Position numbers and translations under genes: made by a program. DNA of 64,000 nt from an uncultured Eubacterium sp. (GTDB taxonomy: Bacteria; Bacillota; Clostridia; Lachnospirales; Lachnospiraceae), in the NCBI GenBank assembly GCA_945946665.1, contig CAMEWO010000010.1, forward strand, positions 1,781 through 65,780, in the 5' to 3' direction. A model generated the notes under the pieces. It saw only the letters and a list, made by a program, of their open reading frames with translations. It searched no databases and was not told the origin of the DNA. Shown here piece by piece: positions 2,531 to 56,724 of the stretch (positions within the stretch are counted from its first letter, which is position 1; the number at the start of each line of letters is the position of its first letter).

Positions 2531-2970
2531 CAGCAACACCATTTTTTACACCAACACAGTGGTTTATGCCTAAACTGGTCCGATAGGGCAGGGTTTACTG
2601 GAATTCGGAGTTTGTCTGGGTGTCCGGCTGCTTATGGGGTTTAGAACTGCTAATTGGGTAAATACAATTGGAACTACGAAGAGAATCATCAGCGCTGTGG
2701 CATGTATGAATTACACTCGCTTATTTCAGCAATGGTTCAAAACTCAGCCCTACGGGCTTCAAACAGTTGCCCCATTGCTGGCGAAGTGTAATCCAACATA
2801 CCCCACCGCTTGTGATTTCTTCTAATGTTCCAATTGTATTTACCCAATTAGCAGTTCTAAACCCCATAAGCAGCCGGACACCCAGACAGACTCCGAATTC
2901 CAGTAAACCCTGCCCTATCGGACCAGTTTAGGCATATACTACTGTGTTGGTGTAAAAACTGGTGTTGCTG
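2531..2970. repeat. Giant palindromic element A (144-bp arms around a 152-bp core)
   Basis: 2531-2674 is the reverse complement of 2827-2970 with 4 mismatches; core 2675-2826. Confidence 0.95.
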
Positions 2971-3133
2971 AAAGTTATACCCTTAGTAAATTAGCATAAT
3001 ATTTTGAGAAAAATGGTTAGTGTTTCTGCTCTTTGCTGTCACTTTCGACAGATGATGTAGTGGCAGGCTGAGTCAGAACTTACTGGGGTGGGTGGGGTGT
3101 TCTTGCATTTTTGTTGTTTTGGAAGAGACAGTA

Positions 3134-3630
3134 GTAACTGGCTGAGCAGGATTTAACGGAAGTATGGCCGGTCTGCACCCTTATATAAAAAGTCACATTT
3201 AGAAGAAATCTTAGCGCTGCGGTGTGTATGGATTACACTTCGCCAGCAACTGTACGGATTATGGTAGTCCAGGCTGTACCCTTAAATAGAAAAAAGTCAC
3301 ATTTAGAAGAAATCTTAGTGCTGCGGTGTGTATGGATTACACTTCGCCAACAACTGACCGATTGTTTGAGTCCCGACAGGGGCGAGTTGAAGGGAAGTTG
3401 TTGAAATAAGCGAGTGTAATCCATATACATCGCAACACTTAGATTCTCTTCGTCGTGACTTTTTTCTATTTAAGGGTACAGCCTGGGCTGCCACAATCCG
3501 TGCAGTTGCTGAAATAAGCGAGTGTAAGACATATGCGTCGCAACGCTTAGATTCTCTTCGTCGTTCCAGGAAGGCAGCATATGTAGGTACACACAGGCCA
3601 TACTTCCGTTAATTCATGCCAGCTGGTTAC
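3134..3630. repeat. Giant nested palindromic element B (B-spacer-B-loop-A'-spacer'-A')
   Basis: B units 3187-3245 and 3291-3349; A' units 3403-3464 and 3511-3564; 45-bp spacers 3246-3290 and 3465-3509 complementary with 4 transitions; perfect 17-bp outer IR 3153-3169/3596-3612. Confidence 0.95.
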
Positions 3631-3691
3631 GGCAGGGATTGTCGAAATGACGTAAGGATGTAAGAACATGGGGCGGAAAGTGCGATTGTGC

Positions 3692-3719
3692 TTGACCTTA
3701 ACCTTGTTTTCGGTATAAA
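3692..3719 (+). promoter_or_regulatory. Possible sigma-A promoter for the GH13 operon
   Basis: TTGACC-16-TATAAA about 110 bp upstream of the start. Confidence 0.35.
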
Positions 3720-3825
3720 ATTATGGTGTATGAGGCTATACTGTATCATGAATGGTGCAGCAAAGGGTGGAAGTGAGAAATTGCGCAGACTGGCGTAGTT
3801 TTATCCCCCTAGAAATGAGGAATTT

Positions 3826-5937
3826 GTGAAAATAGTTAAATGGATCAATTCTCTTGATGCGAATGAAAAGAAACTTTTATATATGTGCAATACACGTCCT
3901 GTTTTAAAGCCAAGGGCGTTGTATTCTGATGGAACAGGAGATTACAGAATACCTGCGGAGTGTGAACCATGGGATACTGTAAGGCTCAGGCTCAGAACCG
4001 GAAAGTTTAATATTGATAAGGCATATTTGTATGTGGATAATGAAGAATATCCAATGGAGCGTGTTGAATCAGATACCTATTTTGATTACTATGAGGCATC
4101 TGTGGAGGTTGGAGAGGCACCTGTCTCATATTATTTTAAGGTAGTTGGTGCAAAGTCTGTTGTGTATTACTATAACCAGATTGGTGCGGCAAAGGAGCTT
4201 AACCCATATTATAATTTCCAGATTTATCCTGGACACAAGGTTCCAGAATGGATTAAAGGAGCAGTAATCTACCAGATATTTGTGGACAGATTCTGCGACG
4301 GAGATAAATCTAACAATGTGCTGGATGATGAGTATTCTTATATTGGTGAGCATGTTGTACAGGTGCAGGACTGGAACAAATATCCTGCTTCAATGGGTGT
4401 TAGAGAATTTTATGGCGGTGACCTTAAGGGAGTATGGGACCAGCTTGATTATCTGCAGAGTCTGGGCGTGGAGGTTATATATTTTAATCCCCTTTTTGTA
4501 TCTCCATCTAACCACAAATACGATATTCAGGACTATGACTATATTGACCCACACTTTGGAGTTATCGTTGATGATGAGGGTGAACTTCTGGGTGAGGGAG
4601 ATATGGATAATACCCATGCAACAAGATATATTAACAGGGTTACCAACAAGAAGAACCTGGAAGCAAGCAACGCATTTTTTGCAAAGCTTGTGGAGGAAAT
4701 CCACAGAAGAGGCATGAAGGTCATAATTGACGGAGTGTTTAACCACTGTGGTTCCTTTAACAAATGGATGGACAGAGAACATATATACAGCAACAGCAAT
4801 GAGCAGTATGAGGCTGGTGCATATGAAAAATATGAGAGTCCATACCACAGCTTCTTTAAGTTTTATGGAGACCAGTGGCCTGATAATGATTCATACGATG
4901 GATGGTGGGGACATGACACACTTCCTAAACTTAATTATGAGGAGTCAGATAAGCTGGAAGAATATATAATCAACATTGGAAAGAAATGGGTATCTCCTCC
5001 TTACAATGTAGATGGCTGGAGATTAGACGTGGCAGCAGACTTGGGATACAGCCAGGAATATAACCATGAATTCTGGAAGAAGTTCAGAATTGCTGTAAAG
5101 GAGGCAAATCCTGATGCGGTAATTCTTGCTGAGCATTATGGTGACTGTCACAGCTGGCTTAGCGGCGGCGAGTGGGATACTATAATGAATTATGATGCAT
5201 TTATGGAGCCTGTAACATGGTTCCTTACTGGAATGGAGAAACATTCTGATGAATACAGGCATGATATGCTGGGAAATGCAGGTAATTTCTTTGGTGCGAT
5301 GCATCACGGAATGTCAAGGATGGGCAGCCAGGCAGTATATACTTCTATGAATGAACTGTCAAATCATGACCATTCAAGATTCCTTACAAGAACTAACCAT
5401 ATTGTGGGACGTACAGCATCTGTGGGACCACTGCGGGCTTCGGAAAATGTTAATAAGGCCTGCTTTATGGAAGCAGTAGTGATGCAGATGACATGGCCTG
5501 GTGCACCTACAATATATTACGGTGATGAGGCTGGTGTATGTGGCTGGACAGATCCAGACAACAGGCGGACTTATCCGTGGGGACATGAGGATCAGGAACT
5601 GATAAGATTCCATCAGGATATAATAAAACTCCATAAGGAATGCAGTGTGCTGCAAAACGGCTCATACAAGGAACTGGTTTCAGAATATAATCTGCTGGCT
5701 TATGGCAGGTTTGACAGGAATGATATATTAGTTGTTGTTATTAATAATTCAGACGATGAAAGACGTGTATCCATACCAGTGTGGGAGTTAGGTATGCCTA
5801 CGGATACTGATATGGAACAGATATTTGTAACTTATGATGGGGGATACAGCACGCAGAGACTTTATTATTCTGTCAATGACGGATGGATTAGTCTTGGTAT
5901 GAGAAGACATTCCTCTCTTGTGCTTCGCAAAGCGTAG
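3826..5937 (+). CDS. GH13 neopullulanase/cyclomaltodextrinase-like alpha-glycosidase with N-terminal CBM-like domain
   Basis: GH13 regions DGVFNH, GWRLDVA, AEHYG, SNHD; YQIFVDRF and YYGDEAG. Confidence 0.9.
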   Translation: MKIVKWINSLDANEKKLLYMCNTRPVLKPRALYSDGTGDYRIPAECEPWDTVRLRLRTGKFNIDKAYLYVDNEEYPMERVESDTYFDYYEASVEVGEAPVSYYFKVVGAKSVVYYYNQIGAAKELNPYYNFQIYPGHKVPEWIKGAVIYQIFVDRFCDGDKSNNVLDDEYSYIGEHVVQVQDWNKYPASMGVREFYGGDLKGVWDQLDYLQSLGVEVIYFNPLFVSPSNHKYDIQDYDYIDPHFGVIVDDEGELLGEGDMDNTHATRYINRVTNKKNLEASNAFFAKLVEEIHRRGMKVIIDGVFNHCGSFNKWMDREHIYSNSNEQYEAGAYEKYESPYHSFFKFYGDQWPDNDSYDGWWGHDTLPKLNYEESDKLEEYIINIGKKWVSPPYNVDGWRLDVAADLGYSQEYNHEFWKKFRIAVKEANPDAVILAEHYGDCHSWLSGGEWDTIMNYDAFMEPVTWFLTGMEKHSDEYRHDMLGNAGNFFGAMHHGMSRMGSQAVYTSMNELSNHDHSRFLTRTNHIVGRTASVGPLRASENVNKACFMEAVVMQMTWPGAPTIYYGDEAGVCGWTDPDNRRTYPWGHEDQELIRFHQDIIKLHKECSVLQNGSYKELVSEYNLLAYGRFDRNDILVVVINNSDDERRVSIPVWELGMPTDTDMEQIFVTYDGGYSTQRLYYSVNDGWISLGMRRHSSLVLRKA

Positions 5938-5952
5938 AAAGGTGGTAAACAG

Positions 5953-6837
5953 ATGAGTAACGATAAGGAAACAAGACCAGAGATTAAGCTGAACCGTAAG
6001 ATGAGAATGTGGAATAAATACAGAATTTTCTGTATTATTGCAGCTGTAATTCTTGTGGTTGTTATAGTGGTAGTGGCAGCTGTTAAGGGAATTACAGGAG
6101 GTAAGAATAAGCAGGTTGCTGAGAATCCTACCCCAAGCCAGGGACAGAGCCAGACTTATGTGCCTGAGGCAACAACCACGGCAGGTGAAACAACAGGAGC
6201 AGAACAGACAACAAAGCAGGAGGAGACAACAACTACCCAGGCTGCACCATCTGGAAGTGGACTTAAGCTTAGTGGTTCTGCGGAAGCTGAGACATTTACA
6301 AATAAGGATTATTATTCAGATACAGTATTTATGGGAGATTCTGTTATATCAGGTATTGAGAGCTATGGATACCTTAATAATGTTGTGGGAAATGTGAATG
6401 CCACAAGTGGCAAGCTGGAATCTTACGTTAATGAGGCCATGAAATCTAACCCTTCGAAGGTATTTATTATGGTTGGACATAATGATGCCAACTATGGAAC
6501 AATAAAGGAAGAATCTCTTGCTTCTAATATTACTGATATTGTAGCAGCAATTCATAAGAAGAATAGTTCAACCAAGGTATATGTTTTATCAATTACACCA
6601 ATTACATCTGCATATGAGAATAAGTCATCTAATAATGTAAAGCAGTCTTATATTGATAAAGCCAACAGCCTTATTGAGGAGAATGCTTCATCAGGAAAGT
6701 ACACGTATGTAGATGTTGCATCTGCATATAAAGATACTAATGGCTATATGAAAACAGATTGTACAGGTAATGGTATTAACCTTAAGAATAGTTATTATCC
6801 ATTTCTTCTTAATGGCATTGCTGAAGTAGTAAAGTAG
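5953..6837 (+). CDS. Membrane-anchored SGNH/GDSL hydrolase-like protein
   Basis: N-terminal TM helix, T/Q-rich linker, FMGDSV and VGHND blocks. Confidence 0.7.
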   Translation: MSNDKETRPEIKLNRKMRMWNKYRIFCIIAAVILVVVIVVVAAVKGITGGKNKQVAENPTPSQGQSQTYVPEATTTAGETTGAEQTTKQEETTTTQAAPSGSGLKLSGSAEAETFTNKDYYSDTVFMGDSVISGIESYGYLNNVVGNVNATSGKLESYVNEAMKSNPSKVFIMVGHNDANYGTIKEESLASNITDIVAAIHKKNSSTKVYVLSITPITSAYENKSSNNVKQSYIDKANSLIEENASSGKYTYVDVASAYKDTNGYMKTDCTGNGINLKNSYYPFLLNGIAEVVK

Positions 6838-6855
6838 TTTAAGAATGGAGTGACA

Positions 6856-7566
6856 ATGAATTTTCACGTATTAACCCTTTTTCCAGACATGATTACACAG
6901 GGGCTTAACACCAGCATAACAGGAAGGGCTATTGAGAATGGTCTTGTTTCTATAGAGGCAGTTAATATCAGGGATTATTCAACTGATAAGCATCTTAAGG
7001 TGGATGATTATCCATATGGTGGCGGTGCAGGACTGGTTATGAGGGCTGACCCTATATGCAGGGCATATGATGCAGTTGCTTCCAGACTGGATAAGAAGCC
7101 AAGAGTGGTATATATGACTCCCGTAGGATATACATTTAACCAGAACATGGCAAGGGAGTTTGCCCAGGAAGAAGAACTGGTTATTCTCTGCGGACACTAT
7201 GAAGGAGTGGATGAGCGGGCGCTTGAGACAATTGTGACAGATTTCGTCTCTATAGGTGATTATGTGCTGACAGGTGGAGAACTGGCAGCCATGGTAGTTA
7301 TTGATGCGGTGTCACGGCTGGTTCCAGGGGTACTTCATAATGATGAGTCTGCTGTTACAGAGAGCTTTGAGAATGGTCTTCTGGAATATCCACAGTATAC
7401 ACGTCCTGAGGTTTACAATGGAATGGCAGTTCCGGAGGTTCTGCTTTCAGGACACCATGGCAACGTGGATAAATGGCGGTTGGAGCAATCCCTTCAGCGC
7501 ACTAAGAAGTACAGACCAGATCTGTATGAGGCATATATGGAGCGTACTAAGAAAGATAAAGCTTAG
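6856..7566 (+). CDS. trmD: tRNA (guanine37-N1)-methyltransferase
   Basis: VDDYPYGGGAG, LCGHYEGVDER, SIGDYVLTGGE, LEYPQYTRP. Confidence 0.97.
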   Translation: MNFHVLTLFPDMITQGLNTSITGRAIENGLVSIEAVNIRDYSTDKHLKVDDYPYGGGAGLVMRADPICRAYDAVASRLDKKPRVVYMTPVGYTFNQNMAREFAQEEELVILCGHYEGVDERALETIVTDFVSIGDYVLTGGELAAMVVIDAVSRLVPGVLHNDESAVTESFENGLLEYPQYTRPEVYNGMAVPEVLLSGHHGNVDKWRLEQSLQRTKKYRPDLYEAYMERTKKDKA

Positions 7567-7568
7567 AA

Positions 7569-8282
7569 ATGAGGATTAAAATGATTAATTCTTATGTAGC
7601 ATTAGATATTGAGACAACGGGGGTTAATCCTTCCCTTGATAAAATTATTGAAATTGGAATGGCTAAGGTTGTTGACGGAGTAGTGGTTGACAGCTTTAGC
7701 TCTCTTATTGACCCCAGAACTTCCATCAGTTCAAGGATTACAGAACTTACAGGGATTACTGATGAGGATGTGAAGGGAAAACCTGTTATTGACAGTGTTA
7801 TTGGTTATATTGTGGAATTCACGGAAGGGTTTCCTTTGCTGGGACATAACATTATATTTGACTACAGCTTTATAAAGAAGGCTGCTGTCAACAATAAAAT
7901 AGAATTCGAGAGGGATGGGATTGATACCCTGAAGATGTCACGTAGATTGCTTCCTGATATGCCGCACAAGGGACTGGAGTATCTCTGCGGACAGCTGGGA
8001 ATTAATCCGGGACATTCCCACAGGGCATATGATGATGCGCTTAGTGCCATGGAGTTGTATAACAGGCTGTATGATATTAATCCGGAGGATAGCGGGTTTA
8101 TGCAGCCTGTTAAACTTGTGTTTTCTGTTAAGAAGGATACACCTGTTACAGCAGCCCAGATAAGGTATCTGTATGCACTGCTGGCGAAACACAATCTGTC
8201 GGTTGATGAACCGGTTGAAAGTCTTACAAAAAGCAAGGCAAGCAGACTGATTGATCAGATTATTTCCCAGTACGGCAAGTGA
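7569..8282 (+). CDS. DEDDh 3'-5' exonuclease (DnaQ/PolC-epsilon-like)
   Basis: ALDIETTG, GHNIIFD, HRAYDDA. Confidence 0.9.
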   Translation: MRIKMINSYVALDIETTGVNPSLDKIIEIGMAKVVDGVVVDSFSSLIDPRTSISSRITELTGITDEDVKGKPVIDSVIGYIVEFTEGFPLLGHNIIFDYSFIKKAAVNNKIEFERDGIDTLKMSRRLLPDMPHKGLEYLCGQLGINPGHSHRAYDDALSAMELYNRLYDINPEDSGFMQPVKLVFSVKKDTPVTAAQIRYLYALLAKHNLSVDEPVESLTKSKASRLIDQIISQYGK

Positions 8283-8311
8283 GCCCCTCATGTCAGCAGC
8301 ACTTAGTAAAA

Positions 8312-8599
8312 CCTACGATAGGTATGCGTGGATTATGGCAGTTCGACTGTACCCTTAAGTAGAAAAAAGTCACGACGAAGAGAATCTAAGCGTTGCGACG
8401 CATATGAATTACACTCGCTTATTTCGCGACCGCTCTCCAACTCGCCCCTGTCGGGGCTCAAACAATCCGAGCAGTCGCTGGCGAAGTGTAATCCATACAC
8501 GCCGCAGCGCTAAGATTTCTTCTAAATGTGACTTTTTTCTACTTAAGGGTACAGTCAGAGCTGCCGTAATCCACGTATACCTATCTTATGTATCGTAGG
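8312..8599. repeat. Giant palindromic element C (arm-A-loop-B'-arm')
   Basis: 8317-8373 pairs with 8528-8585 (3 transitions, 1 indel); A unit 8364-8425, B' unit 8479-8537. Confidence 0.95.
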
Positions 8600-8879
8600 C
8601 TGTATGTGCGTCTGGCTGCTTACGGGACCTAGGGCTGCTGAACCGGTAAATGCAATTGGGACATTAGAAGAAATCACAAGCGGTGGGGTATGTTGGATTA
8701 CACTTCGCCAGCAATGGGGCAACTGTTTGAAGCCCGTAGGGCTGAGTTTTGAACCATTGCTGAAATAAGCGAGTGTAATTCATACATGCCACAGCGCTGA
8801 TGATTCTCTTCGTAGTTCCAATTGCATTTACCGGTTTAGTAGCCCTAGGTCCCATAAGCAGCCAGACACATATACAGCC
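8598..8879. repeat. Giant palindromic element D (65-bp arms; core is the exact reverse complement of the core of A)
   Basis: 8598-8662 vs 8815-8879, 6 transitions; core 8663-8814 equals the reverse complement of 2675-2826. Confidence 0.95.
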
Positions 8880-8943
8880 GGGCAGGCATATACGCAGGCT
8901 CTGCGAAGTGTTGCTGTTGCCACTGAGGCTGCATGGATGTTGG

Positions 8944-9552
8944 TCAGTTGTCAAGGCTTAAGAGAATGGAATCCAGTTTGGATATAATTGGTTTTTTGGT
9001 CAGGGAATCAAGAGATTCTGCCACACTTATCAGATTCTGGATTTTATCTTTATTGCCGTTAGAAGCATAGTATTCGGCTAGCATGGTATAATTCTGGGTT
9101 ATGTCGGTGCGGCAGCTGATGCCGAATTCAAGGTAGGCGGCAGCCTCATCTGTTAAACCTGCTTTATTTAATTCGGTAGCAAGGGGAATGATGGATTTTA
9201 ACATCTGGGTGCAGTTATCATCATATTCTGATAATGCATCAAGATTTGCAGCGCCGTAGGCTGTTTTCAGGTCGGTATTGCTTTTTCCTGTAAGATTAAG
9301 CATTTTTTTGCCTTTGAATGCGTAGAAATTATTAAGGGCTTTTATAACGGCATCATTACAGTCAGACATAGGAAGACTATCAGGGATTGTAATGTAGCTT
9401 AAGCCGGATATATCTTTCCTGCGGACGGTATTTGCCTCTCTTTCCCTTTTCCAGAAGTCTTTGTTCAGTTCTTCGTGCTTTTTTGAATTTTTCCTAAGAA
9501 AGAATTGAAAGATTGCAAGTAATATTATAAAATATGGCAATACGAGTTTCAT
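8944..9552 (-). CDS. Hypothetical protein with N-terminal membrane anchor and TPR-like helical tail
   Basis: 202-aa ORF, hydrophobic N-terminus, RBS-like aggag upstream. Confidence 0.7.
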   Translation of the reverse strand: MKLVLPYFIILLAIFQFFLRKNSKKHEELNKDFWKREREANTVRRKDISGLSYITIPDSLPMSDCNDAVIKALNNFYAFKGKKMLNLTGKSNTDLKTAYGAANLDALSEYDDNCTQMLKSIIPLATELNKAGLTDEAAAYLEFGISCRTDITQNYTMLAEYYASNGNKDKIQNLISVAESLDSLTKKPIISKLDSILLSLDN

Positions 9553-9839
9553 GAAAATCTCCTAAATTATTGTTATATTTGTTATATGTTATATTTGTTT
9601 TATATTATTTTTGGCTGCAGGGCAGCAGAAAGGCTTGTTTATGATTAATTTTAACAGCAAAAAGAATAAAAAGATACTTCTTTCACTGGTTATTGTACTG
9701 GTTCTGGCAATGATTGTTCCTATGGTAGTATCGGCAGTCAGTGCATTTATGTAATGTAATATACTCTAAAAATGGAAGTTATGCAAATATATATGGCTTT
9801 GCCAGAAATGGAATTAAGTCATGGGTAAACCATTAGGGA

Positions 9840-10832
9840 ATGAGGACTAGGATGAAGGTTGGTAAGATTTCTAATACGATTCTGAACAGGTCGGTTTTTA
9901 AGAATATTAACTGTAAAAATGTGTGTAAAGAGAGCAGACTTAAGGCCGGACTGGGTGCATCGGTTTTTAAGAAAGATGCATTTCAGGGTGGAAACAGAAT
10001 TGTTATGGTGACTGAGAGCGGGATAGAACCGGTAATCAGAGCATATAATGCGGTGTGGGCCAAGGGGGCGGTTCCTAAGGCTGTCCAGGTAAGCGTCATC
10101 TTACCGGAGAAGGCAAGAGAGATACGGCTAAAGGAGATTACTGCGGATATTTCAGCGGATTGCAGCAGACTGGGGATTGATTATGCAGGAGGACATACAC
10201 AGGTTAGTGAGAGTGTCCAGGCCCCGGTTATTACAGCTACATGTATCGGCGAACAGTTGGATGGAGAGATTAGTGCATTTACGGGGAAAGATGTGAAGCC
10301 GGGAGATGTGATAGCTGTTACCAAATGGATTGGAATTGGAGGAATCCAGAAGATTATTGAACTTTCTGTTGATAAAATCAGGGAGAGATACACACAGGCA
10401 GTTATTGACAGAGCTTATGGGAAAAGGGAATTCTTATCAATAAAGGATGAAGCAGAGCTGGTATCAAAGGCAGGAGTGTCTTATATGATGCCGTTGTCTA
10501 CTGGAGGAATATATGGGGGATTATGGAATCTTTCGGAGGTAACAGGCTTAGGAATTGATGTGGATTTTAATAAAATACCTGTGTGTCAGGAGATTATTGA
10601 AGTCTGTGAAATGTTCGATATCAATCCATATGAATTAGAATCTAGTGGATGTTTGTTAATGACATTCGGAAAAGAATATGATATAGTTAGAATACTAGAG
10701 GATAATGATATACCTGTGAACATTATAGGCTGCATGCAGGAGGGAAACGATAAGGTTATCTGTAATATGGATGAGATTCGTTTCCTGGATATGCCGAAAT
10801 GTGATGAGGTTTATAAGATAATTAATTCGTAG
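9840..10832 (+). CDS. AIR-synthase-related / HypE-like protein (PurM fold)
   Basis: GGHTQV, PGDVIAVTKWIG, GGIYGGLW; start may be 9852. Confidence 0.7.
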   Translation: MRTRMKVGKISNTILNRSVFKNINCKNVCKESRLKAGLGASVFKKDAFQGGNRIVMVTESGIEPVIRAYNAVWAKGAVPKAVQVSVILPEKAREIRLKEITADISADCSRLGIDYAGGHTQVSESVQAPVITATCIGEQLDGEISAFTGKDVKPGDVIAVTKWIGIGGIQKIIELSVDKIRERYTQAVIDRAYGKREFLSIKDEAELVSKAGVSYMMPLSTGGIYGGLWNLSEVTGLGIDVDFNKIPVCQEIIEVCEMFDINPYELESSGCLLMTFGKEYDIVRILEDNDIPVNIIGCMQEGNDKVICNMDEIRFLDMPKCDEVYKIINS

Positions 10833-10859
10833 CCAATGCGGGAAAATGAGGTTAATTTG

Positions 10860-11342
10860 ATGGAAGAGAAGATTTTACGCCTTATGGAGAAGAATAGCAG
10901 AATCAGCGTGAAGGATCTGGCGGTTATGCTGGGAATATCTGAGATTGATGCTGCTAATACAATAGCTGATCTTGAGAAGAAGAATGTTATATGTGGATAT
11001 AACACCATTATTGACTGGGATAAGACAAGTGAGGAGAAGGTTACAGCCCTTATTGAGGTAAAGGTTACACCTCAGAGAGGTCTGGGCTTTGACAGTATTG
11101 CGGAGAGATTATACCAGTATGAAGAGGTTACATCTGTTTACCTTATGTCAGGTGGCTTTGATTTTACAGTTATCGTGGAAGGAAAGAGCATGAAGGCGGT
11201 GGCCCAGTTTGTTTCTAATAAACTGGCACCATTGGAATCAGTACTTAGTACTTCTACACATTTTGTCCTTAAGAAATATAAGGATTATGGAACAGTGCTG
11301 GATGCCCCTGAGAAAGATGAAAGGATGTTAATAACACCATGA
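10860..11342 (+). CDS. Lrp/AsnC family transcriptional regulator
   Basis: N-terminal HTH (NSRISVKDLAVMLG), C-terminal YLMSGGFD. Confidence 0.9.
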   Translation: MEEKILRLMEKNSRISVKDLAVMLGISEIDAANTIADLEKKNVICGYNTIIDWDKTSEEKVTALIEVKVTPQRGLGFDSIAERLYQYEEVTSVYLMSGGFDFTVIVEGKSMKAVAQFVSNKLAPLESVLSTSTHFVLKKYKDYGTVLDAPEKDERMLITP

Positions 11343-13006: not shown

Positions 13007-13008
13007 GC

Positions 13009-47774: not shown

Positions 47775-47851
47775 TCTGGTTTATTAATTTACTAATGCGG
47801 AACAGTAAATATTGCTGCATAACAGCTGTAATAAAAGCTGTATAAATGTTT

Positions 47852-48090: not shown

Positions 48091-48174
48091 CTGTCTCTGA
48101 TAGTATAGGCAGTAGTATTGAAAAACATATATTACAGGTGTATAATATATACACAGTAATCTTTCAGGAAAGGG

Positions 48175-48708
48175 GTGGAGTGCATGACGATAGGTGGTTT
48201 AACAGGTGGCTATGGAAGTTTCGGTTACATGAACACTGCCATGAATACAGGCACCACGGGGAGCACTGCTTCCGCTTCTGGTACCCAGGATGTCAGTAAA
48301 GCCTCTTCTAATCCTGATGAGGTTAAGAAGCCGGGAAGGCGTTCTTCTCCTGCAGAGTGTGAAACATGTAAGAGCCGGAAGTATCAGGATGGTTCTGATG
48401 AGAGTAACGTTTCTTTTAAGGCAGCAGCCCATGTATCTCCAGAATCAGCAGGGGCTGCAGTAAGAGCCCATGAAGGACAGCATGTATCCAATGCATATAA
48501 GAAGGCTGCACAGAAGAATGGAGAGGTTGTTAACGCATCTGTATCAATACATACTGCTGTATGTCCGGAGTGTGGACGTACTTATGTATCCGGTGGAACA
48601 ACTAATACAACTATTAAGTACAGCAATGAAAGCAATCCATATACCCAGAATAAGAAGGCTCTTGATGCCATGATGCTTACAGGAGCTAATGTGGATTATG
48701 CAAGCTGA
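48175..48708 (+). CDS. Hypothetical protein, SprA-related-like (HExxH plus two CxxC)
   Basis: CETC, VRAHEGQH, CPECG; S/T/G-rich N-terminus. Confidence 0.6.
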   Translation: MECMTIGGLTGGYGSFGYMNTAMNTGTTGSTASASGTQDVSKASSNPDEVKKPGRRSSPAECETCKSRKYQDGSDESNVSFKAAAHVSPESAGAAVRAHEGQHVSNAYKKAAQKNGEVVNASVSIHTAVCPECGRTYVSGGTTNTTIKYSNESNPYTQNKKALDAMMLTGANVDYAS

Positions 48709-48741
48709 TATACATTTTTAATAATAACAGGAGGCTTAGAT

Positions 48742-49194
48742 ATGTTAGAGACAGGAACTAAAGCACCAGATTTTGAACTTCCTGATCAGAATGGACAGAT
48801 GCACAGACTGTCTGATTACAGGGGAAAGAAAGTTATATTATATTTTTATCCTAAGGATAATACTCCAGGATGTACTAAGCAGGCATGCGGATTCTCAGAG
48901 AGGCTGCCTTTGTTTCTTGAAAAAGGTGCGGTTGTACTTGGGGTAAGCAAAGATTCAGTGGAATCACATAAGCGTTTTGAGGAGAAGCAGAATCTTGCAT
49001 TTACCATACTTTCTGATCCTGAACGAAAAGTAATTGAGGCTTATGATGTGTGGAAAGAGAAGAAAAACTATGGAAAAGTATCTATGGGTGTAGTACGTAC
49101 CACATATCTTATTGATGAGAACGGCATTATAATCAAGGCTAATGATAAGGTCAAAGCAGCAGATGACCCTGAAAATATGCTGAAACAGTTATAG
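48742..49194 (+). CDS. bcp: Thioredoxin-dependent peroxiredoxin Bcp
   Basis: YFYPKDNTPGCTKQAC. Confidence 0.95.
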   Translation: MLETGTKAPDFELPDQNGQMHRLSDYRGKKVILYFYPKDNTPGCTKQACGFSERLPLFLEKGAVVLGVSKDSVESHKRFEEKQNLAFTILSDPERKVIEAYDVWKEKKNYGKVSMGVVRTTYLIDENGIIIKANDKVKAADDPENMLKQL

Positions 49195-49216
49195 TTTTCT
49201 GGTATAGTAATAATGT

Positions 49217-49255
49217 GACCTCCATCTGACAAAAAAGTTAGATGGAGGTCTTTTT
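49217..49255. terminator. Terminator between convergent bcp and MATE
   Basis: gacctccatct...agatggaggtc followed by T-tract. Confidence 0.75.
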
Positions 49256-50582
49256 ATGCGTAGTGATATCTCTTCCTGTACTTAATCAGGCAGGTAACGG
49301 TTACCAGAAGAGTAAGGGCTTCAGCTACAACCACTGCACTCCATATACCATTCAGTCCATAGACAGCGGGAAGAATAAGCACAGCGCCAATCTGGAATAC
49401 AAGTGTTCTAAGGAAAGATATAACAGCTGAGATTACTCCGTTATTAAGTGCTGTAAAGAAAGATGAACCGAATATATCAAATCCGTTGATAAGGAAAACT
49501 AAAGCATATATTCTGAATCCCTGCCGTGTTAAATTAAGAAGAGCTTCATCATAGCCTACAAACATTTTTGAGAGAGGGGCGTTGAGAAGCTGGGCTAAGG
49601 TGGCAAGGCATATACCCCATATTGCTACAAGGGTGAGACTTTTCTTAAACATGTTTTTTAACTCGTTATGGTTGCCAGCTCCATAGTTGTAGCTGATAAT
49701 TGGAGCACTTCCCATAGAGTATCCAATGTAAATTGCCACAAATATGAAGTTGACATACATAATAAAGCCATAAGCCGCAACGCCGTTCTCACCGGCGAAT
49801 CTCATGAGCTGCAGATTGTACAGTGAGTTTACTATTGAACTGGAAATATTAGTCATAAGCTCTGATGAACCATTGATACATGTATAGTAAAGGGTTCTTC
49901 CATAGAATCTGGTCTTTCCGAGTTTAAGCAGGCTGGAATTCTTTCTTCCAAAATACAGTAAAGGTGCAAATCCCCCCAGCATCTCTCCACACACAGTGGC
50001 AATTGCTGCACCGGTCAATCCAAATCCAAGGATTGCAACTAACACAATATCCAGTATAATATTAGTAAATCCTGATAACAGAATGAAGCAAAGGCCAACC
50101 TTTGGCTTTTCGGCAGTGACAAAGAAGCTCTGGAATACATTTTGCAGCATGAAAGCAGGAAGAGAGATAAAGTTAATTCTGGCATACAGTATTGAGTTGG
50201 ACAGGAGTTCACCCTGGGCACCTAAAGCTTTTGCAATGTGAGGAACCAGAAGAGAACCTGCAATGGAAAGAATTATGCCGAGAATGATGGTAGCGTATAC
50301 CAGCATGGAAAAATATTCATTGGCTTTTTCCTTCTTTCCCTCACCAAATGTTTTTGCAACAATGGCGCTGCCTCCTGTACCAATCATGAATCCAAAGGAT
50401 GCCAGTCCCATTACAATTGGCAGGATAAGATTAATTGAAGCCAAGGCAGTTTTGCCTGCAAAATTAGACACAAAGAACCCGTCCACAATGTTATAAATTG
50501 ACGTAAAAATCATCATAACAATTGATGGAATGACAAACCGAAGCAGCTTTTTATAAGTAAAATGTTCTGATAACTGAATCAT
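49254..50582 (-). CDS. MATE family efflux transporter
   Basis: IYNIVDGFFVSNFAG, 12 TM pattern. Confidence 0.92.
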   Translation of the reverse strand: MIQLSEHFTYKKLLRFVIPSIVMMIFTSIYNIVDGFFVSNFAGKTALASINLILPIVMGLASFGFMIGTGGSAIVAKTFGEGKKEKANEYFSMLVYATIILGIILSIAGSLLVPHIAKALGAQGELLSNSILYARINFISLPAFMLQNVFQSFFVTAEKPKVGLCFILLSGFTNIILDIVLVAILGFGLTGAAIATVCGEMLGGFAPLLYFGRKNSSLLKLGKTRFYGRTLYYTCINGSSELMTNISSSIVNSLYNLQLMRFAGENGVAAYGFIMYVNFIFVAIYIGYSMGSAPIISYNYGAGNHNELKNMFKKSLTLVAIWGICLATLAQLLNAPLSKMFVGYDEALLNLTRQGFRIYALVFLINGFDIFGSSFFTALNNGVISAVISFLRTLVFQIGAVLILPAVYGLNGIWSAVVVAEALTLLVTVTCLIKYRKRYHYA

Positions 50583-50768
50583 TGTTAATCTCCTAATTAA
50601 AAAATGTTGTGATTCTTAATTAGTATTGACGAAAAAAATTAATAAATCACATTCTAAGCATATGAATATTAAGCATAATACTATATAGAATAAAAGTCAA
50701 TATGAAATATATTGTGATTATCAAGGAATATACCATTATTGAAAGTTTACATGTAAAATGGAGGATAT

Positions 50769-51449
50769 ATGGAAATTAAACCTATTGCAGTAATACATAC
50801 AGATTTTCCAGAAAAGTTTGGAATACCAAGACAGAGTGGACTGGTACCATCATTAATGGGAAGGGTGGAATTCTATCCTGAATACAGGACTAAAGATGCA
50901 GTCAGAGGCATTGAAGGTTATTCTCACTTATGGATTCTGTGGCAGTTTTCCAAATCACTTCGTGAAAACTGGAGCGCAACAGTAGCTCCGCCAAGACTGG
51001 GTGGAAGACAAAAAATGGGCGTGTTTGCCACAAGGTCTCCTTTCAGACCTAACCACATAGGATTGTCCTGTGTGAAACTGGAAAGTGTACAGTATGATGA
51101 AATTAATGGTCCTGTGCTGTATGTTTCAGGAATTGACATGCTTGATGGTACTCCTGTATATGATATTAAACCATATATTCCATATGCTGATTCAAGACCA
51201 GATGCGACGGGAGGATTTTCAGATGATGTAAAGGAAAACAATCTTTCGGTGTGTATTCCTGATGAACTTAAAATGAAAATTCGGGAACAGGATTATGAAA
51301 CCATCAAAACACTTCTGTCCCAAGACCCCAGAACAGCATATATCCACGATAAAAGCCGGGTGTGGGGCATGTCATATAAGGACTACAACATAAAATTTAT
51401 AGTTGATGGCGACCTGCTTAAAGTACTGGAAATCACACAGATACCATAA
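50769..51449 (+). CDS. trmO: tRNA m6t6A37 methyltransferase TrmO (TsaA)
   Basis: KFGIPRQ, GVFATRSPFRPN, DMLDGTPVYDIKPY. Confidence 0.9.
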   Translation: MEIKPIAVIHTDFPEKFGIPRQSGLVPSLMGRVEFYPEYRTKDAVRGIEGYSHLWILWQFSKSLRENWSATVAPPRLGGRQKMGVFATRSPFRPNHIGLSCVKLESVQYDEINGPVLYVSGIDMLDGTPVYDIKPYIPYADSRPDATGGFSDDVKENNLSVCIPDELKMKIREQDYETIKTLLSQDPRTAYIHDKSRVWGMSYKDYNIKFIVDGDLLKVLEITQIP

Positions 51450-51487
51450 TAGAAATGTGATGTTAATCTTCTTCTATGGGATTAAGC

Positions 51488-52159
51488 TTAGTCCTTTGGC
51501 GTAAACATTTTATTATCGATAGGGATGAAAATATGCTGGAAAATTACAGAATATGCCTCATTTCCACGACCATTTTTAAGAGCATCATAGTAGGCTTCAT
51601 GGTCTGATAAAGTCTGTTCAATTCCATATGGCGTTGACAGAATTGTGTGTGCAGTAACGCTTATCATATACATAAGCCTCTGATAAAGACGTTTGATTTC
51701 GTTGTTTTCAGAGTAATATACTATCAGATTGTGGAACATATTATCATATGTGATGTATTTCTTGAGGACTGTGTGGTCAGAATTATATTTAACAGCACAG
51801 TCTTTCATGTGGGATAGAGCATCTTCAAGGCTGCTAAGAAAATCGTTAAATTTAGGCGTACCTGTCTGGGATGTAATTATAGTGGTGCAGAAGCACTCAA
51901 TAGCACATCTTATCTGGATATTTTCATACATATCCTTCTCTGAAAGCTGTGTAATCTGGAAACCCTTGCTGGGAATAATTGTGATATATCCATCCTGGCT
52001 CAGGCACTGGAGAGCTTCTCTCATTGGGGTTCTTGAAATGCCTACTTCGGAAGAAAACTTTGTCTCAGAGTATAAATCATCTGGGTTAAGTTCACCAGAC
52101 AGAATCTTTTCTTTAATGAAGTCATATGCCTGCTGCTGTAATGCACTTTTGGTTCTCAT
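51488..52159 (-). CDS. GntR family regulator (FCD)
   Basis: GISRTPMREALQCL HTH. Confidence 0.88.
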   Translation of the reverse strand: MRTKSALQQQAYDFIKEKILSGELNPDDLYSETKFSSEVGISRTPMREALQCLSQDGYITIIPSKGFQITQLSEKDMYENIQIRCAIECFCTTIITSQTGTPKFNDFLSSLEDALSHMKDCAVKYNSDHTVLKKYITYDNMFHNLIVYYSENNEIKRLYQRLMYMISVTAHTILSTPYGIEQTLSDHEAYYDALKNGRGNEAYSVIFQHIFIPIDNKMFTPKD

Positions 52160-52406
52160 AGGTAATTATACACCTTTCTAAAACGAATATAACTAACGTA
52201 TACAAATTGTAGGTTATAAACATAATCCGAAATTACGATATCATGGATTAAAATTATTACAATATATCATAAGTGTCAAGTTTTAATTGAAACTTTTTAT
52301 GTGTTGAACTATTTGTTCTTTGTGTTTGGAGTGCTTTGTGGTATACTGATTACATGAAAGATGAGTGGTCATAGAATTTAACACAATGACAAGTGAGGTA
52401 AGTAAT

Positions 52407-52598
52407 ATGTCTGATAATGGTGGACAGGCTAGCTGCGAGTACTGCAATAATCTGGTGTATGATGAGGAGATGGAGGAGTACGTGTGTGATGTGGATATGG
52501 ACGAAGACGATTATGCCAGACTTCTTGGTTCTTCATACAGAAATTGTCCGTATTACCAGAGTAATGATGAATATAAGGTGGTAAGACATCAGATGTAG
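52407..52598 (+). CDS. Small Cys-rich acidic protein (DUF6472-like)
   Basis: CEYC..C..MDEDD..CPYY..DEYKVVRHQM. Confidence 0.7.
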   Translation: MSDNGGQASCEYCNNLVYDEEMEEYVCDVDMDEDDYARLLGSSYRNCPYYQSNDEYKVVRHQM

Positions 52599-52617
52599 CA
52601 GGGAAAAGGAGGGATAT

Positions 52618-53691
52618 ATGGATAAAAAATCTATATTAATGATAGACGACGTTAAGCTTAATCTGGCAACTGCCAGAGATGTTCTGCAGAATGAGTATAT
52701 TCTGTATGAAGCATCATCTGCCCAGGAGGGATTTGATATTCTTAATAAGCACATTCCTGATTTGATTCTTATGGATCTTGTAATGCCAGAGATGGATGGC
52801 TATGAGATGATAGAGATATTAAAAAGTACAAGGCGTTTTATGGGAATTCCGGTTATTATTCTTACTGCCCATACTGATTCAGAAAATGAGGTAAAAGCAC
52901 TGGAACTTGGAGCAGCAGATTTCATTACCAAGCCTTTCGTTCCAGCAGTTATGAAGAGAAGAATAGAAACCCAGATAGAACTCTCGTCTTACCAGCATTC
53001 CCTGGAAAAACTGGTTCAGGAGAAGGTAGAAGAGGTTGAGAAGCTTCAGGATGCATTATCAGTTGGATTTGCAGAACTTGTGGAGTCAAGGGATGGAATA
53101 ACTGGTGGACATGTAAAGAATACGGGACTGTATTTTGATGTGTTTATCAGGGCTCTTAAGGGAGAAGCTAAATACAGGGATGAGATTACAGATGAGTATA
53201 TAAAGAATGCAGTGCGTTCAGCACCACTTCATGATATTGGCAAGGTGGGAATAGATGATGTAACACTTAGCAAGCTGGGAAGGCTGGGAGATGACAGGGA
53301 TCAATATATTGAGAAGCATTGTACCCTGGGTGGACAGACATTCCACAGACTCCGGAAGGTGTTCCCTGAAAGTGAATTCCTAAAGATTGCCGAGAATATG
53401 ACCCTTTATCATCATGAAAGATGGGATGGAACCGGAGGACCATTTGGTCTGAAGGGTGAAGAAATTCCACTGTGTGCAAGGGTTATGACTATTGTTGATA
53501 CTTATGATGTACTTACTTCAGAAAGACCTTACAAGCCTCCATACAGCCATGAAAAGTCAATGGCAATAATTGTGGAGGGGAAGGGTACTATGTATGATCC
53601 TGATCTTGTGGACGAATTTGTTAAGCACAGCGAACTTATAAGAGACTGTCTCAAGAAAAAGGAAGAACTTCTTAAGCAGAAAAGCAGATAA
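52618..53691 (+). CDS. REC plus HD-GYP-like phosphodiesterase (RpfG-like)
   Basis: LMDLVMP, HDIGK, HHERWDGTGGP, RPYK. Confidence 0.88.
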   Translation: MDKKSILMIDDVKLNLATARDVLQNEYILYEASSAQEGFDILNKHIPDLILMDLVMPEMDGYEMIEILKSTRRFMGIPVIILTAHTDSENEVKALELGAADFITKPFVPAVMKRRIETQIELSSYQHSLEKLVQEKVEEVEKLQDALSVGFAELVESRDGITGGHVKNTGLYFDVFIRALKGEAKYRDEITDEYIKNAVRSAPLHDIGKVGIDDVTLSKLGRLGDDRDQYIEKHCTLGGQTFHRLRKVFPESEFLKIAENMTLYHHERWDGTGGPFGLKGEEIPLCARVMTIVDTYDVLTSERPYKPPYSHEKSMAIIVEGKGTMYDPDLVDEFVKHSELIRDCLKKKEELLKQKSR

Positions 53692-53755
53692 TATTTTGCT
53701 GACAGTCATCAGATATAATGAATAATAATTAATCAATAATGAGGAGCATTTTATA

Positions 53756-54235
53756 ATGGATAAAATAGCAAGTTTTACAGTGAACCATCTTTTACTTTTA
53801 CCTGGAGTATATGTTTCCAGGAAGGATAAGATTGGACAGGAGGTCATTACTACATTTGATTTAAGATTTACAAGACCTAACCTGGAAGCCCCTATGGACA
53901 ACCCTGGAATTCACAGTATAGAACATCTTGTTGCCACATTTTTAAGAAATCATCCTGTATGGAAGGATAAGACAATATATTTTGGACCAATGGGCTGCAG
54001 AACCGGGTTCTATGTAATATTTGCCGGAGACCTTAAGTCAGAGGATATTATTGATGTATTACGGGAAGCTGCGGACTTTGTACTTGGTTACGAAGGGGAG
54101 ATACCGGGATATTCACCAAGGGACTGCGGAAATTATCTTGATAATAACCTGACACTGGCTAAGATTTACATGAAAAAGTTTAAGGAAGAGGTATTGGATA
54201 ATCCTGTTCCTGAAAGGCTTAATTACCCAGAGTAA
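53756..54235 (+). CDS. luxS: S-ribosylhomocysteine lyase
   Basis: SFTVNH, HSIEH, GPMGCRTGFY, CGNY. Confidence 0.95.
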   Translation: MDKIASFTVNHLLLLPGVYVSRKDKIGQEVITTFDLRFTRPNLEAPMDNPGIHSIEHLVATFLRNHPVWKDKTIYFGPMGCRTGFYVIFAGDLKSEDIIDVLREAADFVLGYEGEIPGYSPRDCGNYLDNNLTLAKIYMKKFKEEVLDNPVPERLNYPE

Positions 54236-54380
54236 ATATTGGGCGTAAGTGAATATGCATTATTTATCAGGGTTAATCCTCCTTGCATAAGTAATACAGT
54301 TGTGATATGATTTACGGGATATTTGAGGTATTATGACGTTTTGTCATTTGAGAATTATAATATATGAAGGAGAATGAATC

Positions 54381-56147
54381 ATGGTAGATTTTAAGGCGGA
54401 TGAGAACCTTAGCGTTCTCAACCATTCCTGTGCACATCTTATGGCTCAGGCTGTAAAACATCTTTATCCTAATGCAAAGTTCTGGGTAGGACCTGTTGTA
54501 TCCGAAGGGTTTTATTATGATATTGACCTGGGAGATGAGGTAATTAACCAGGATGATATTGCAGCCATCGAGAAAGAGATGAAAAAGGTTGCCAAGGAAG
54601 GCAAGAAGATTATAAGAAGAGAGGTTTCCAAGGCTGAGGCATTGGAGATGTTCAAGGGTGATGAATATAAGCTGGATCTTATATCTAACCTTGAGGATGG
54701 CAATATTACTGTATATGACCAGGGGGACTTCACAGACCTCTGTCGTGGACCTCACGTAGATAATGTTAAGCTTTGCAGACATTTTAAGTTAATTAAGCAT
54801 TCTGGTGTATACTGGAAGGGCGATGCCAATAACCGTGTACTTCAGAGAATTTATGGAGTATGTTTCCCAACAGCAGAGGAGTTGGAGGATCACCTTAAGC
54901 TTCTTGAGGAGGCGAAGGAACGTGACCATAGAAAGATTGGCAAAGATATGCAGCTTTTCATGGTTGATGATCTTATTGGACGAGGACTTCCAATGTTTCT
55001 GCCAAAGGGATATACAATATGGCAGGAGCTGGAGAACTACATTAAGGAGAAGGAGAGAAAGCTTGGCTATCTCCATGTTATGACTCCTTGTGTTGGTACA
55101 GTTAACCTTTATAAGACTTCAGGCCATTGGGATCATTATAAGGAGAATATGTTCCCAGCCATGGAGGTTGAGGGTGAATCATTTGTATTAAGACCAATGA
55201 ACTGCCCACACCACATGATGATATATGCTAACAGAATGCATTCATATAAGGATCTTCCTATAAGAATAGGTGAGATTGCCCATGACTTCAGATTTGAAGC
55301 AAGTGGTACTCTTAAGGGAATTGAGAGAGGACGTCATTTCTGTCAGAATGATGCCCATCTGTTCGTAACTCCTGAGCAGATTGAGGATGAGTTCTCTAAG
55401 GTTGTAGACCTTATATTCCAGACATATAAAGATTTTAATATTACAGATTACCGCTGTGTTCTTTCTCTTAGAGATCCGGCAGATACAACCAAGTATCATC
55501 AGGACGATGAGATGTGGAACAAAGCTGAAGATGCCTTAAGAAAGGTTCTTAATGACCTTGGAATCGAGTATACAGAGGAAATTGGCGAGGCTGCATTCTA
55601 CGGACCTAAGCTTGATGTTAATGTTAAACCTGCTGTTGGTAATGAGTATACACTTTCGACATGCCAGCTTGATTTCTGTCTGCCAGCAAAGTTTAATCTT
55701 ACTTACATTGACAAGGATGGAGAGAAGAAGACACCTGTAGTTCTTCACAGGGCAATTCTTGGTTCTCTTGACAGATTTATGGCGTATATCTTAGAGGAGA
55801 CTAAGGGTAACCTGCCATTATGGCTTGCACCTGTACAGGCAAGGGTTCTTCCTGTTAAGAATGATGATGTGGAATTGTCTGCATATGCTAAGGAAGTATA
55901 TGATATCCTTAATGACAATAACATAAGGGTTGAACTTGACGACCGTTCTGAGAAGCTGGGATACCGTATGCGTGAAGGACAGATTCAGAAAGTTCCATAT
56001 CTTCTGGTTCTTGGTAATAATGAGAAGAATGACAGAACAGTTTCTTTCAGACTGCATGGACAGCAGGAGACTACAACGGTTGGACTTGATGAGTTTGTTG
56101 GAAAGCTTAAGAGGGAAATTGAAACAAAAGGTCATGACGAAAACTAA
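54381..56147 (+). CDS. thrS: Threonine--tRNA ligase, short form without TGS domain
   Basis: HSCAH, DLCRGPH, RDHRKIG, RPMNCP, FYGPK, HRAILGS. Confidence 0.97.
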   Translation: MVDFKADENLSVLNHSCAHLMAQAVKHLYPNAKFWVGPVVSEGFYYDIDLGDEVINQDDIAAIEKEMKKVAKEGKKIIRREVSKAEALEMFKGDEYKLDLISNLEDGNITVYDQGDFTDLCRGPHVDNVKLCRHFKLIKHSGVYWKGDANNRVLQRIYGVCFPTAEELEDHLKLLEEAKERDHRKIGKDMQLFMVDDLIGRGLPMFLPKGYTIWQELENYIKEKERKLGYLHVMTPCVGTVNLYKTSGHWDHYKENMFPAMEVEGESFVLRPMNCPHHMMIYANRMHSYKDLPIRIGEIAHDFRFEASGTLKGIERGRHFCQNDAHLFVTPEQIEDEFSKVVDLIFQTYKDFNITDYRCVLSLRDPADTTKYHQDDEMWNKAEDALRKVLNDLGIEYTEEIGEAAFYGPKLDVNVKPAVGNEYTLSTCQLDFCLPAKFNLTYIDKDGEKKTPVVLHRAILGSLDRFMAYILEETKGNLPLWLAPVQARVLPVKNDDVELSAYAKEVYDILNDNNIRVELDDRSEKLGYRMREGQIQKVPYLLVLGNNEKNDRTVSFRLHGQQETTTVGLDEFVGKLKREIETKGHDEN

Positions 56148-56724
56148 ATTATAAAGCAAGTGCAGTGGTTGTTGGTGGAAAACTGACAACCACTGATTTT
56201 TTTGACTAAAGGACGCATGGTACCTGCATACTTAAATTGAAAAAGTCACTACGAAGAGAATCTAAGTGTTGCGACATATATGAATTACACTCGCTTATTT
56301 CAGCAACTGTTTTCACTATGGCGATTTGGGCCACACACTTGAATAAAAAAAGTCACTACGAAGAGAATCTAAGTGTTGCGACATATATGAATTACACTCG
56401 CTTATTTCAACAACTGCCCGACAACTCGCCCCTGTTCGGGGCTCAGACATTCGTGCAGTTGTTGGCGAAGTGTAATCCATACACGCCGCAACACTAAGAT
56501 TTCTTCTAATGTGACTTTTTTTATTCAAGTGTGTGGCCCAAATCACCATAGTGAAGGCAGTTGTTGGCGAAGTGTAATCCATACACGCCGCAGCGCTAAG
56601 ATTTCTTCTAATGTGACTTTTTCAATTTAAGTGTGCAGGTACTATGCTGTTTATTCTGGAAAAATTAGTGGTTGTCAGTTTTTCTCAGTAGCCCTTATTT
56701 GGTTTATAATTTAGTTTTCTTCAT
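56134..56724. repeat. Giant nested palindromic element E (A-spacer-A-loop-B'-spacer'-B'), arms extending into the thrS 3' end
   Basis: A units 56240-56301 and 56347-56408; B' units 56463-56520 and 56565-56622; outer IRs 56215-56249/56613-56647, 56177-56201/56660-56684, 56134-56155/56703-56724. Confidence 0.95.
56163..56203 (+). terminator. thrS intrinsic terminator
   Basis: cagtggttgttggt-ggaaa-actgacaaccactg followed by a and T7. Confidence 0.75.

Follow-up and report, generated by a model that had tools for sequence, protein, structure and literature searches.

A dispersed family of giant intergenic hairpins with a conserved asymmetric center and locus-specific arms in an uncultured Eubacterium species

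Introduction

Among described bacterial repeats, the closest to the one reported here are the REPIN/REP/BIME elements and their REP-associated tyrosine transposases (RAYT). They are described as extragenic, multi-copy, vertically persistent and paired, with inverted units that fold into a hairpin presumed to be read single-stranded (PMC3116915, PMC3337134, PMC3733652). A REPIN consists of two REP hairpins of 20-40 bp in inverted orientation and totals ~100 nt. ERIC/IRU, Correia, BOX and RUP elements are intergenic imperfect palindromes near gene ends (BOX being modular), whose RNA folds depend on orientation through G-U versus A-C pairs (PMC3184786, PMC2229807). A separate body of work concerns quasipalindromes, at which a nascent strand copies itself; such template switching makes quasipalindromes more perfect (PMC7202029) and extends arm identity in highly transcribed DNA of yeast (PMC3820800). 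Here we analyzed a family of giant intergenic hairpins found in a 64,000-nucleotide stretch (the window) of contig CAMEWO010000010.1 (C10:1781-65780) from an uncultured Eubacterium sp. of the Lachnospiraceae (assembly GCA_945946665.1, here G000; 2.45 Mb in 48 contigs, 99.95% complete). Sizes aside, the family shares the properties listed above with both groups of repeats, and its arms change in the manner described for quasipalindromes.

Results

An initial annotation, made from the letters of the window alone, had pointed to five self-folding loci built from facing A and B units. The giant imperfect palindromes at these loci are real. Self-palindromes were found at 2528-2973, 3134-3630, 8311-8599, 8598-8879 and 56134-56724 (hairpins A to E; plain numbers are window positions and C-numbers denote contigs of G000), and the A and B units were present as described. 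The copy number of five was far too low. BLAST searches with the units identified 99 A/B units in 33 intergenic loci of G000; this is a genuine dispersed family with conserved non-complementarity. Self-comparison of the genome resolved ~41 hairpins of 214-623 bp that together occupy ~14.9 kb or ~0.6% of G000, and ten loci contained two adjacent hairpins; adjacent pairs were always oriented (+)(-). A covariance model trained on 17 modules detected 42 full modules; since sense matches scored 150-200 bits and antisense matches 55-85 bits, the polarity of each module was unambiguous. All unit and spacer motifs in G000 fell inside the hairpin loci, with no unit elsewhere and no gene flanked by units.

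Each module reads, in order, an A-tract with GTCAC (or a GGAAC-type junction), the A unit, a helix, the apex, the B' unit and GTGAC with a T-tract, so that it opens with an A-tract that mirrors the closing GTGAC plus T5-7. The conserved part is an asymmetric core of ~160 bp, or ~250 bp including the conserved spacer. It comprises the A unit with a CGCTTAT bulge, the helix, an internal loop (AACTC/TCARACA) around a GC mini-hairpin, and the B' unit. Alignment of 53 modules showed an extra 5-nt bulge on the A arm within CGCTTATTTC and 23 aligned positions that were non-Watson-Crick in at least 80% of the copies, in agreement with the recurrent mismatches and bulges noted by the annotation. The ~157-nt cores were the best conserved part between loci (96-100% identity), the outer arms were unique to each locus, and a 20-45-nt spacer outside the core was common to one subfamily. 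In hairpins with two modules, the unit plus a 45-nt spacer recurred with a period of 104-108 nt. Complementarity between the arms was 72% in the core, 92% at 20-40 nt, 89% at 40-60 nt and 87% at 60-90 nt outside it; the almost perfect pairing attributed to the flanking arms therefore held close to the core but not farther out, where it fell to 79% past 130 nt (77% overall at locus E).

Pairing was well supported by covariation. Within the family, 93% of the cells of the alignment paired as against 39-48% with slid partners, and 31 of the 59 pairs had changed on both sides, including the transversion swaps GC to CG and AU to UA. As RNA, the sense strand folded more weakly than the antisense strand in 33 of 38 hairpins (mean gap ~11 kcal/mol) because the conserved mismatches are mostly A-C in sense and G-U in antisense. 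A consensus scan detected no promoter inside the core.

The near-perfect arms do not belong to a mobile unit: they differ from locus to locus, and part of their sequence is copied from the flank. At C10:69945, the last 16 nt and the stop codon of the upstream gene recur inverted on the far side of the hairpin, and this inverted copy is closer to the 3' untranslated region of the sister species (G019) than the left arm of G000 is. Similarly, the palindromes at C11:43450 and C37:14701 take in the final 26-46 nt of the adjacent coding sequence and carry inverted gene-end copies. Hairpin E, a single 591-nt hairpin (dG -335 kcal/mol, z = -30.8; none of 100 shuffles as stable), shows the same in the window. 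Its native left flank (56134-56215, plus strand) contains the last 14 nt of thrS with the stop codon (thrS ends at 56147), followed by the thrS terminator (56163-56195). Its right flank (56647-56724, minus strand) repeats the thrS end and the 3' half of the terminator in inverted and patchily diverged form. The C-terminus of thrS resembles that of relatives, identifying the native flank as the template of the captured copy. In all copies inspected, the flanks adjacent to the core were inverted, not direct, and there was no fresh insertion among these.

We compared the hairpins with those of G019, an uncultured Eubacterium sp. metagenome-assembled genome (MAG) that is 77% complete and broken at hairpins. 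Flanking DNA was 92-98% identical between the two species and the family occupied most of the same sites. Because most sites are common to both, the expansion of the family predates the species split, and recent transposition is unsupported. Orthologous hairpins diverged far more than their flanks (for example 78% versus 92.5% identity), with 17-28 both-sided pair changes in each hairpin where the flanks were 92-96% identical. Both arms change together, and arm identity extends into the flank, as template switching predicts. A four-way alignment of the C11 hairpin resolved three zones. In the outer zone, where the arms overlap coding ends, arm-specific differences were kept in both species; the middle arms carried ~15 species-specific changes per 40 nt that were common to both arms; and the polarity of the core was flipped between species.

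The annotation had also proposed a comparison of empty sites. Polymorphic sites do exist, but those that appeared empty were deletion stubs. Three sites filled in G019 and short in G000 each proved to be an internal deletion leaving a shorter hairpin: at C9:34033 between 5-nt direct repeats (TCTAA), at C20:18101 at a GCG microhomology, and at C1:387085, where the stub is terminator-like. The C20 deletion is a strain-level event, judged by metagenome contigs 97-99.6% identical to G000. No true pre-insertion site was found among these comparisons. The 36-nt apical mini-hairpin of G000 at C32:265-564 gives way in another strain to a complete inner element of 279 nt, within flanks that are 98-99.7% identical; this module swap is a replacement, for which conversion from another copy is the best explanation. 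Two further strain differences were observed. A strain contig (L089, 93-96% identical) jumps from the hairpin at C5:50469-50804 to C5:62308, so that only one of the two strains has the ~11.5 kb beside the hairpin (C5:50804-62308); the arms of the hairpin also belong to different subfamilies. A 203-bp segment at C26:25472-25674, outside the hairpin family, is present in G000 and absent from strain contig L093.

We then related the modules to the neighboring genes (on contigs other than that of the window, these are crude calls of the longest open reading frame). In most cases a hairpin of G000 started -46 to +65 nt from a stop codon, with its A unit facing that gene. The rule was kept by all five single hairpins between co-directional genes. 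All seven clean pairs in convergent spacers were arranged (+)(-), so each gene has its own sense-oriented hairpin. Single hairpins in convergent spacers cannot test the rule because either polarity suits one of the two genes. Hairpin B was the one clear exception; the gene to its right, encoding a GH13 protein, is on the plus strand. Between G000 and G019, polarity was kept at the co-directional and paired sites examined and reversed at four convergent sites with a single hairpin.

The full family was detected by BLAST, covariance model and pattern search in 2 of the 51 species of the genus, which are sister species, and the strict core pattern retrieved one other genome among 185,579 species, namely G019. 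The element is nonetheless not confined to G000, since its apex is common to other genera of the family Lachnospiraceae. Full-length model matches of 40-73 bits occurred in four other genera and shared the apex (AACTC, GC mini-hairpin, TCARACA) together with a CGCTTAT-like bulge 22-25 nt upstream. The apex pattern alone was found in 17 of 300 other genera sampled, with 1-10 copies each (10 in G201), while a reversed-pattern control gave almost nothing. All 15 instances inspected tip long hairpins (178 to at least 300 nt, z from -3 to -35). Absence from 49 of the 51 species and 283 of the 300 genera indicates that the element is dispensable and patchy. The genes beside the cross-genus copies were unrelated housekeeping genes, and orientation to them was mixed (8 sense, 5 antisense, 2 divergent); one G201 copy has a stop codon on one side and a canonical terminator on the other.

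The helix below the apex was wholly different between genera yet still paired. The cross-genus copies are a sample whose whole-hairpin MAFFT alignment was too poor for a consensus fold, and the central 95 nt were used. The covariation score was 0.418 as compared to 0.150 ± 0.024 for shuffled alignments (0 of 500 reached it) and at most 0.211 for slid partners, so the covariation that the annotation had suggested looking for was strong within the family and across genera. The annotation had not recognized the element as a named family, and Rfam 15 likewise gave zero matches at the gathering score for the window and 12 cross-genus loci, with sub-threshold matches attributable to chance. In a genome of another genus (G085, 5.7 Mb), two copies (L104, L113) have arms that are near-perfect, specific to the locus and at least 296 nt long (z -32 and -35), so arm growth also occurs outside the lineage of the window. 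In a further genus (G307, L114), hairpins at 1424-1603 (plus) and 1828-2001 (minus) form a (+)(-) pair between convergent genes, as in G000. Carriage by phages was rejected, as the core pattern matched none and the apex pattern one of 2.9 million viral contigs.

Searches for a mobilizing enzyme were negative for the families covered. No Y1 HUH transposase (PF01797) was detected in G000, G019, G005, G018, G020, G201, G230, G274 or G347. Of the five other motif-bearing genomes, G194 alone has IS200-like copies. The analogy to REPIN/RAYT drawn by the annotation therefore failed its key test, the enzyme being absent from both carrier species and from four of the five other genomes. A search for Y2 (IS91) enzymes gave no match; the control genomes were likewise without a match, so this search had no positive control. 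TnpB was not found in G000, G019 or G274, and IS110 occurs as a single copy in G000 and not at all in G201, which has 10 motif copies; neither tracks the motif, and both were rejected as mobilizers. The IS110-family gene of G000 (C1:331648-332124, in a 428-aa open frame) has no hairpin or apex motif nearby. A retro-element that copies mRNA 3' ends was rejected because RVT_1 had no match in five genomes including G000 and G019. A 336-aa open reading frame without Pfam or NCBIfam match occurs in four copies in G000 (C23:2790-3800, C15:8079-9092, C2:91445-92458 and C46:1217-2260; 84-88% identity) and by eye resembles putative Rpn/PD-(D/E)XK nucleases; it was rejected as the enzyme of the element, since it occurs in 22 of 31 genomes of the genus but not in G019. 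Integron attC sites were also rejected, since the copies are dispersed after syntenic housekeeping genes and it is the apex, not the base, that is conserved; the integrase itself was not part of the search.

We also considered the nucleases that act on palindromes. SbcD and SbcC were unrecognizable in G000, G019 and the hairpin-free G005, G018 and G020 (best scores 18-29 bits, far under the cut-offs), and exonuclease VII (XseA) was present in all five. Loss of SbcCD or exonuclease VII was consequently rejected as a lineage-specific cause. The nuclease by which E. coli destroys long palindromes may thus be lacking in the genus; its absence may be permissive but is not specific to the carrier lineage.

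The window loci differ in composition. Hairpin A (plus strand) has one module with the A unit first (model match C10:4445-4616, plus); its core at ~2665-2836, with the apex motif at 2731-2755, is of the variant type with a GGAAC-type junction, and its arms (2528-2674 and 2827-2973) are 97% complementary. Hairpin B (minus strand; model match C10:5071-5244, minus) contains two nested modules with B units at 3187-3252 and 3291-3356 and A' units at 3396-3456 and 3504-3564. Hairpin C (plus strand) has one module (A unit 8364-8425, apex 8439-8464, B' 8464-8537) and begins 30 nt past the stop of the exonuclease gene (7569-8282), in a spacer of only ~30 bp in three hairpin-free relatives. Hairpin D (minus strand) also has one module, lies 65 nt past the stop of the minus-strand gene 8944-9552, and has a core (8663-8814) that is the exact reverse complement of the A core. 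Comparison of A with the reverse complement of D gave ~165 identical core columns, flanked by arms that were ~25% diverged, self-complementary and changed by paired multi-base substitutions on both arms. Hairpin E (plus strand) contains two nested modules, with A units at 56240-56308 and 56347-56415, the apex at 56423-56449 and B' units at 56449-56515 and 56550-56620. A simple terminator scan beside it reported only the native thrS and glutamine synthetase terminators.

The surroundings of these loci were compared with the three hairpin-free relatives. Four native genes on the plus strand (3811-8280), assigned by Pfam to a GH13 amylase, a GDSL lipase, TrmD and a DEDDh exonuclease, lie between the pairs A-B and C-D, outside the element. 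They were rejected as cargo of a composite element, as they are syntenic in G005, G018 and G020 (75-76% nucleotide identity), where C-D falls in the ~30-bp spacer. The DNA upstream of 3811 is without counterpart in three relatives. It includes a 773-aa open reading frame (67-2388, plus strand) that stops 140 nt before hairpin A and joins a MobA/VirD2-type relaxase nuclease domain to the resolvase, recombinase, zinc-ribbon and DUF4368 domains of a large serine recombinase, which come after it. Alignment of 56148-56814 with L014 (G018) and L015 (G020) showed that the relatives hold a minus-strand gene of ~100 codons between thrS and a type III glutamine synthetase. The small gene, present in three relatives, is missing from G000, and hairpin E occupies the gap.

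Discussion

We regard it as an evenly balanced proposition that the family is a non-autonomous, center-conserved, self-extending palindromic DNA repeat whose arms are rebuilt in place by template switching and whose center is read as a folded single strand. The inherited part would be the asymmetric center, for which recognition as a folded single strand by a putative trans-acting factor seems the most natural reading. The arms would not be carried along but made and kept complementary in place. A strand under synthesis that has copied both halves of the center would snap back and copy its own first arm in place of the true template, as in quasipalindrome template switching, rewriting the second arm to match the first. 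A switch that overran the end of the palindrome would lay an inverted copy of the flank opposite, and the hairpin would grow outward until it met a gene. We propose that the center keeps its mismatches because it nucleates the snap-back and is itself copied from the true template. Nucleation by an already copied center would explain why the mismatched center is bordered by the most perfect arms, why pairing decays outward, why flanks are mirrored and why growth stops at genes.

Other changes would follow from related events. Recombination between the arms could flip the core, and slippage across the hairpin could delete it, leaving terminator-like stubs. Conversion between dispersed copies through the conserved units could swap apexes or inner modules and give rise to nested forms; ectopic conversion of this kind would account for cores that are identical although their arms have diverged, for switched apexes, and for modules gained or lost. 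The family may have entered, or burst in, the common ancestor of the two sister species, and relatives with the same center may survive, in few copies, elsewhere among the genera of the Lachnospiraceae.

Several observations weigh against this proposal. No mobilizing enzyme was found among the families searched. Since no pre-insertion site was seen and most sites are older than the species split, mobility, and with it the first colonization of new sites, is inferred from the patchy multi-copy distribution only. The arms diverge ~5 times faster than the flanks, which template switching alone does not explain. Nor does it account for the strict rule that the A unit comes first, and this polarity suggests an effect on the transcript. 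Conserved unpaired motifs with covarying stems across genera would also be expected of a functional RNA.

On account of these last points, the main rival is a role at the level of the transcript, which we consider rather unlikely. According to it, the hairpins are structured RNAs of mRNA 3' ends or free-standing non-coding RNAs; the bulge and apex would bind a protein, the stem would serve as terminator, insulator or stabilizer, and the oddities of the DNA would be side effects of long palindromes. The gene-proximal position of the A unit just past the stop codon, and the retention of this polarity between species except at convergent single sites, agree with such a role. So do the order of A-tract, stem and T-tract, which resembles a two-way terminator, the invariant unpaired motifs above covarying stems, and the G201 copy placed between stop codon and terminator. 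On the other hand, the element is lacking from nearly all species of the genus and most genera sampled, its 42 modules in one genome stand beside unrelated housekeeping genes, and orientation to genes is mixed in other genera. The sense transcript is usually the one that folds worse, the thrS terminator already precedes the core at locus E, and no Rfam family matched.

The family could also be a terminal-inverted-repeat MITE (miniature inverted-repeat transposable element) derived from a DDE insertion sequence, with copies in terminator regions by chance. The copies are indeed short, non-coding, multi-copy, intergenic, hairpin-forming and nested at some loci, but their centers are conserved and their ends locus-specific, the opposite of what a MITE shows. 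In the copies inspected, the flanks form inverted repeats and not direct target duplications, host gene ends lie inside the arms, and neither a parent element, nor a unit outside the hairpins, nor a viral contig matching the core pattern was found. We consider this origin improbable. Still less probable, and largely refuted, is a REPIN/BIME-type element copied by a RAYT of the Y1 HUH type. An extragenic, multi-copy hairpin of two homologous inverted units fits this reading, as does the small GC apex hairpin with fixed single-stranded bases, the kind of site that HUH enzymes read. However, Y1_Tnp was lacking from G000, G019, G201, G230, G274 and G347, leaving only G194 with IS200-like copies; the units are 62 nt and not 20-40 nt, the hairpins are 5-10 times the length of a REPIN, and the units flank no gene. 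An assembly or amplification artefact is refuted: some library methods are known to create palindromic chimeras, but the same family occurs at orthologous sites in an independent MAG and in contigs of two other samples, and the apex is conserved in 17 further genera.

Returning to the self-extending palindromic repeat, we tentatively suggest that its center (the CGCUUAU bulge and the AACUC / GC mini-hairpin / UCARACA apex) may be the handle of an undescribed system acting on single strands, either a mobilization enzyme or an RNA-binding factor. The hairpins would then possibly represent a novel kind of repeat, one that brings along its center alone and takes its arms from adjacent host DNA; as self-extending palindromes they could write over the ends of genes and serve as two-way terminators that move. 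If the template-switching account is true, the family is a natural setting, with many copies, for following palindrome-driven template switching across species and strains as it remodels gene ends and terminators, a process so far studied mostly at single engineered sites. The conserved hairpin-tip motif, found in scattered genera of a major gut bacterial family and in no catalog of RNAs or repeats, could be used as bait for the protein that reads it. The hairpins also break short-read assemblies (that of G019 fragments at them), and in annotation they may be mistaken for regulatory RNAs or terminators.

Several known systems resemble the family in part. Single-strand origins of the ssoA type, from rolling-circle plasmids, are imperfect hairpins of 150-300 nt that are orientation-specific, have few conserved unpaired motifs on variable stems and are read as folded single-stranded DNA. 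Such an origin is present once per plasmid, whereas the present hairpins number 40 in the chromosome, and inspection by eye showed neither an RS-B nor a CS-6 motif. Unlike REPIN/RAYT systems, the family has no RAYT or Y1 enzyme; its units of 62 nt exceed the size of REP hairpins and form modular, nested hairpins of 214-623 bp with one or two modules. It further differs in its conserved center, its locus-specific arms that capture gene ends, and a polarity that follows the upstream gene. ERIC, Correia, BOX and RUP elements are 100-170 bp long with conserved ends and target duplications, as opposed to the variable ends, lengths of up to 623 bp and arms apparently rebuilt in place seen here. Proliferating hairpins without a known enzyme are described as selfish palindromic repeats of Volvox organelles (PMC2670323). 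The coding palindromes of Nematomorpha mitochondria have arms that reach into coding sequence, as do ours (PMC6649704). Both cases concern eukaryotic organelles and unrelated sequences, and neither is described as having a conserved asymmetric center or a gene-linked polarity. Palindromes also seed inverted duplications around themselves, as here, according to a further study (PMC3315005). In process, the family matches quasipalindrome template switching, in which the nascent strand copies itself, the arms become more complementary and arm identity is extended (PMC7202029, PMC3820800). Transcription favors it in yeast (PMC3820800). It is known as a mutational process at single reporter sites, but has not been described as the regular way in which a natural repeat family of 40 copies, mirroring up to ~80 nt of its flank, evolves.

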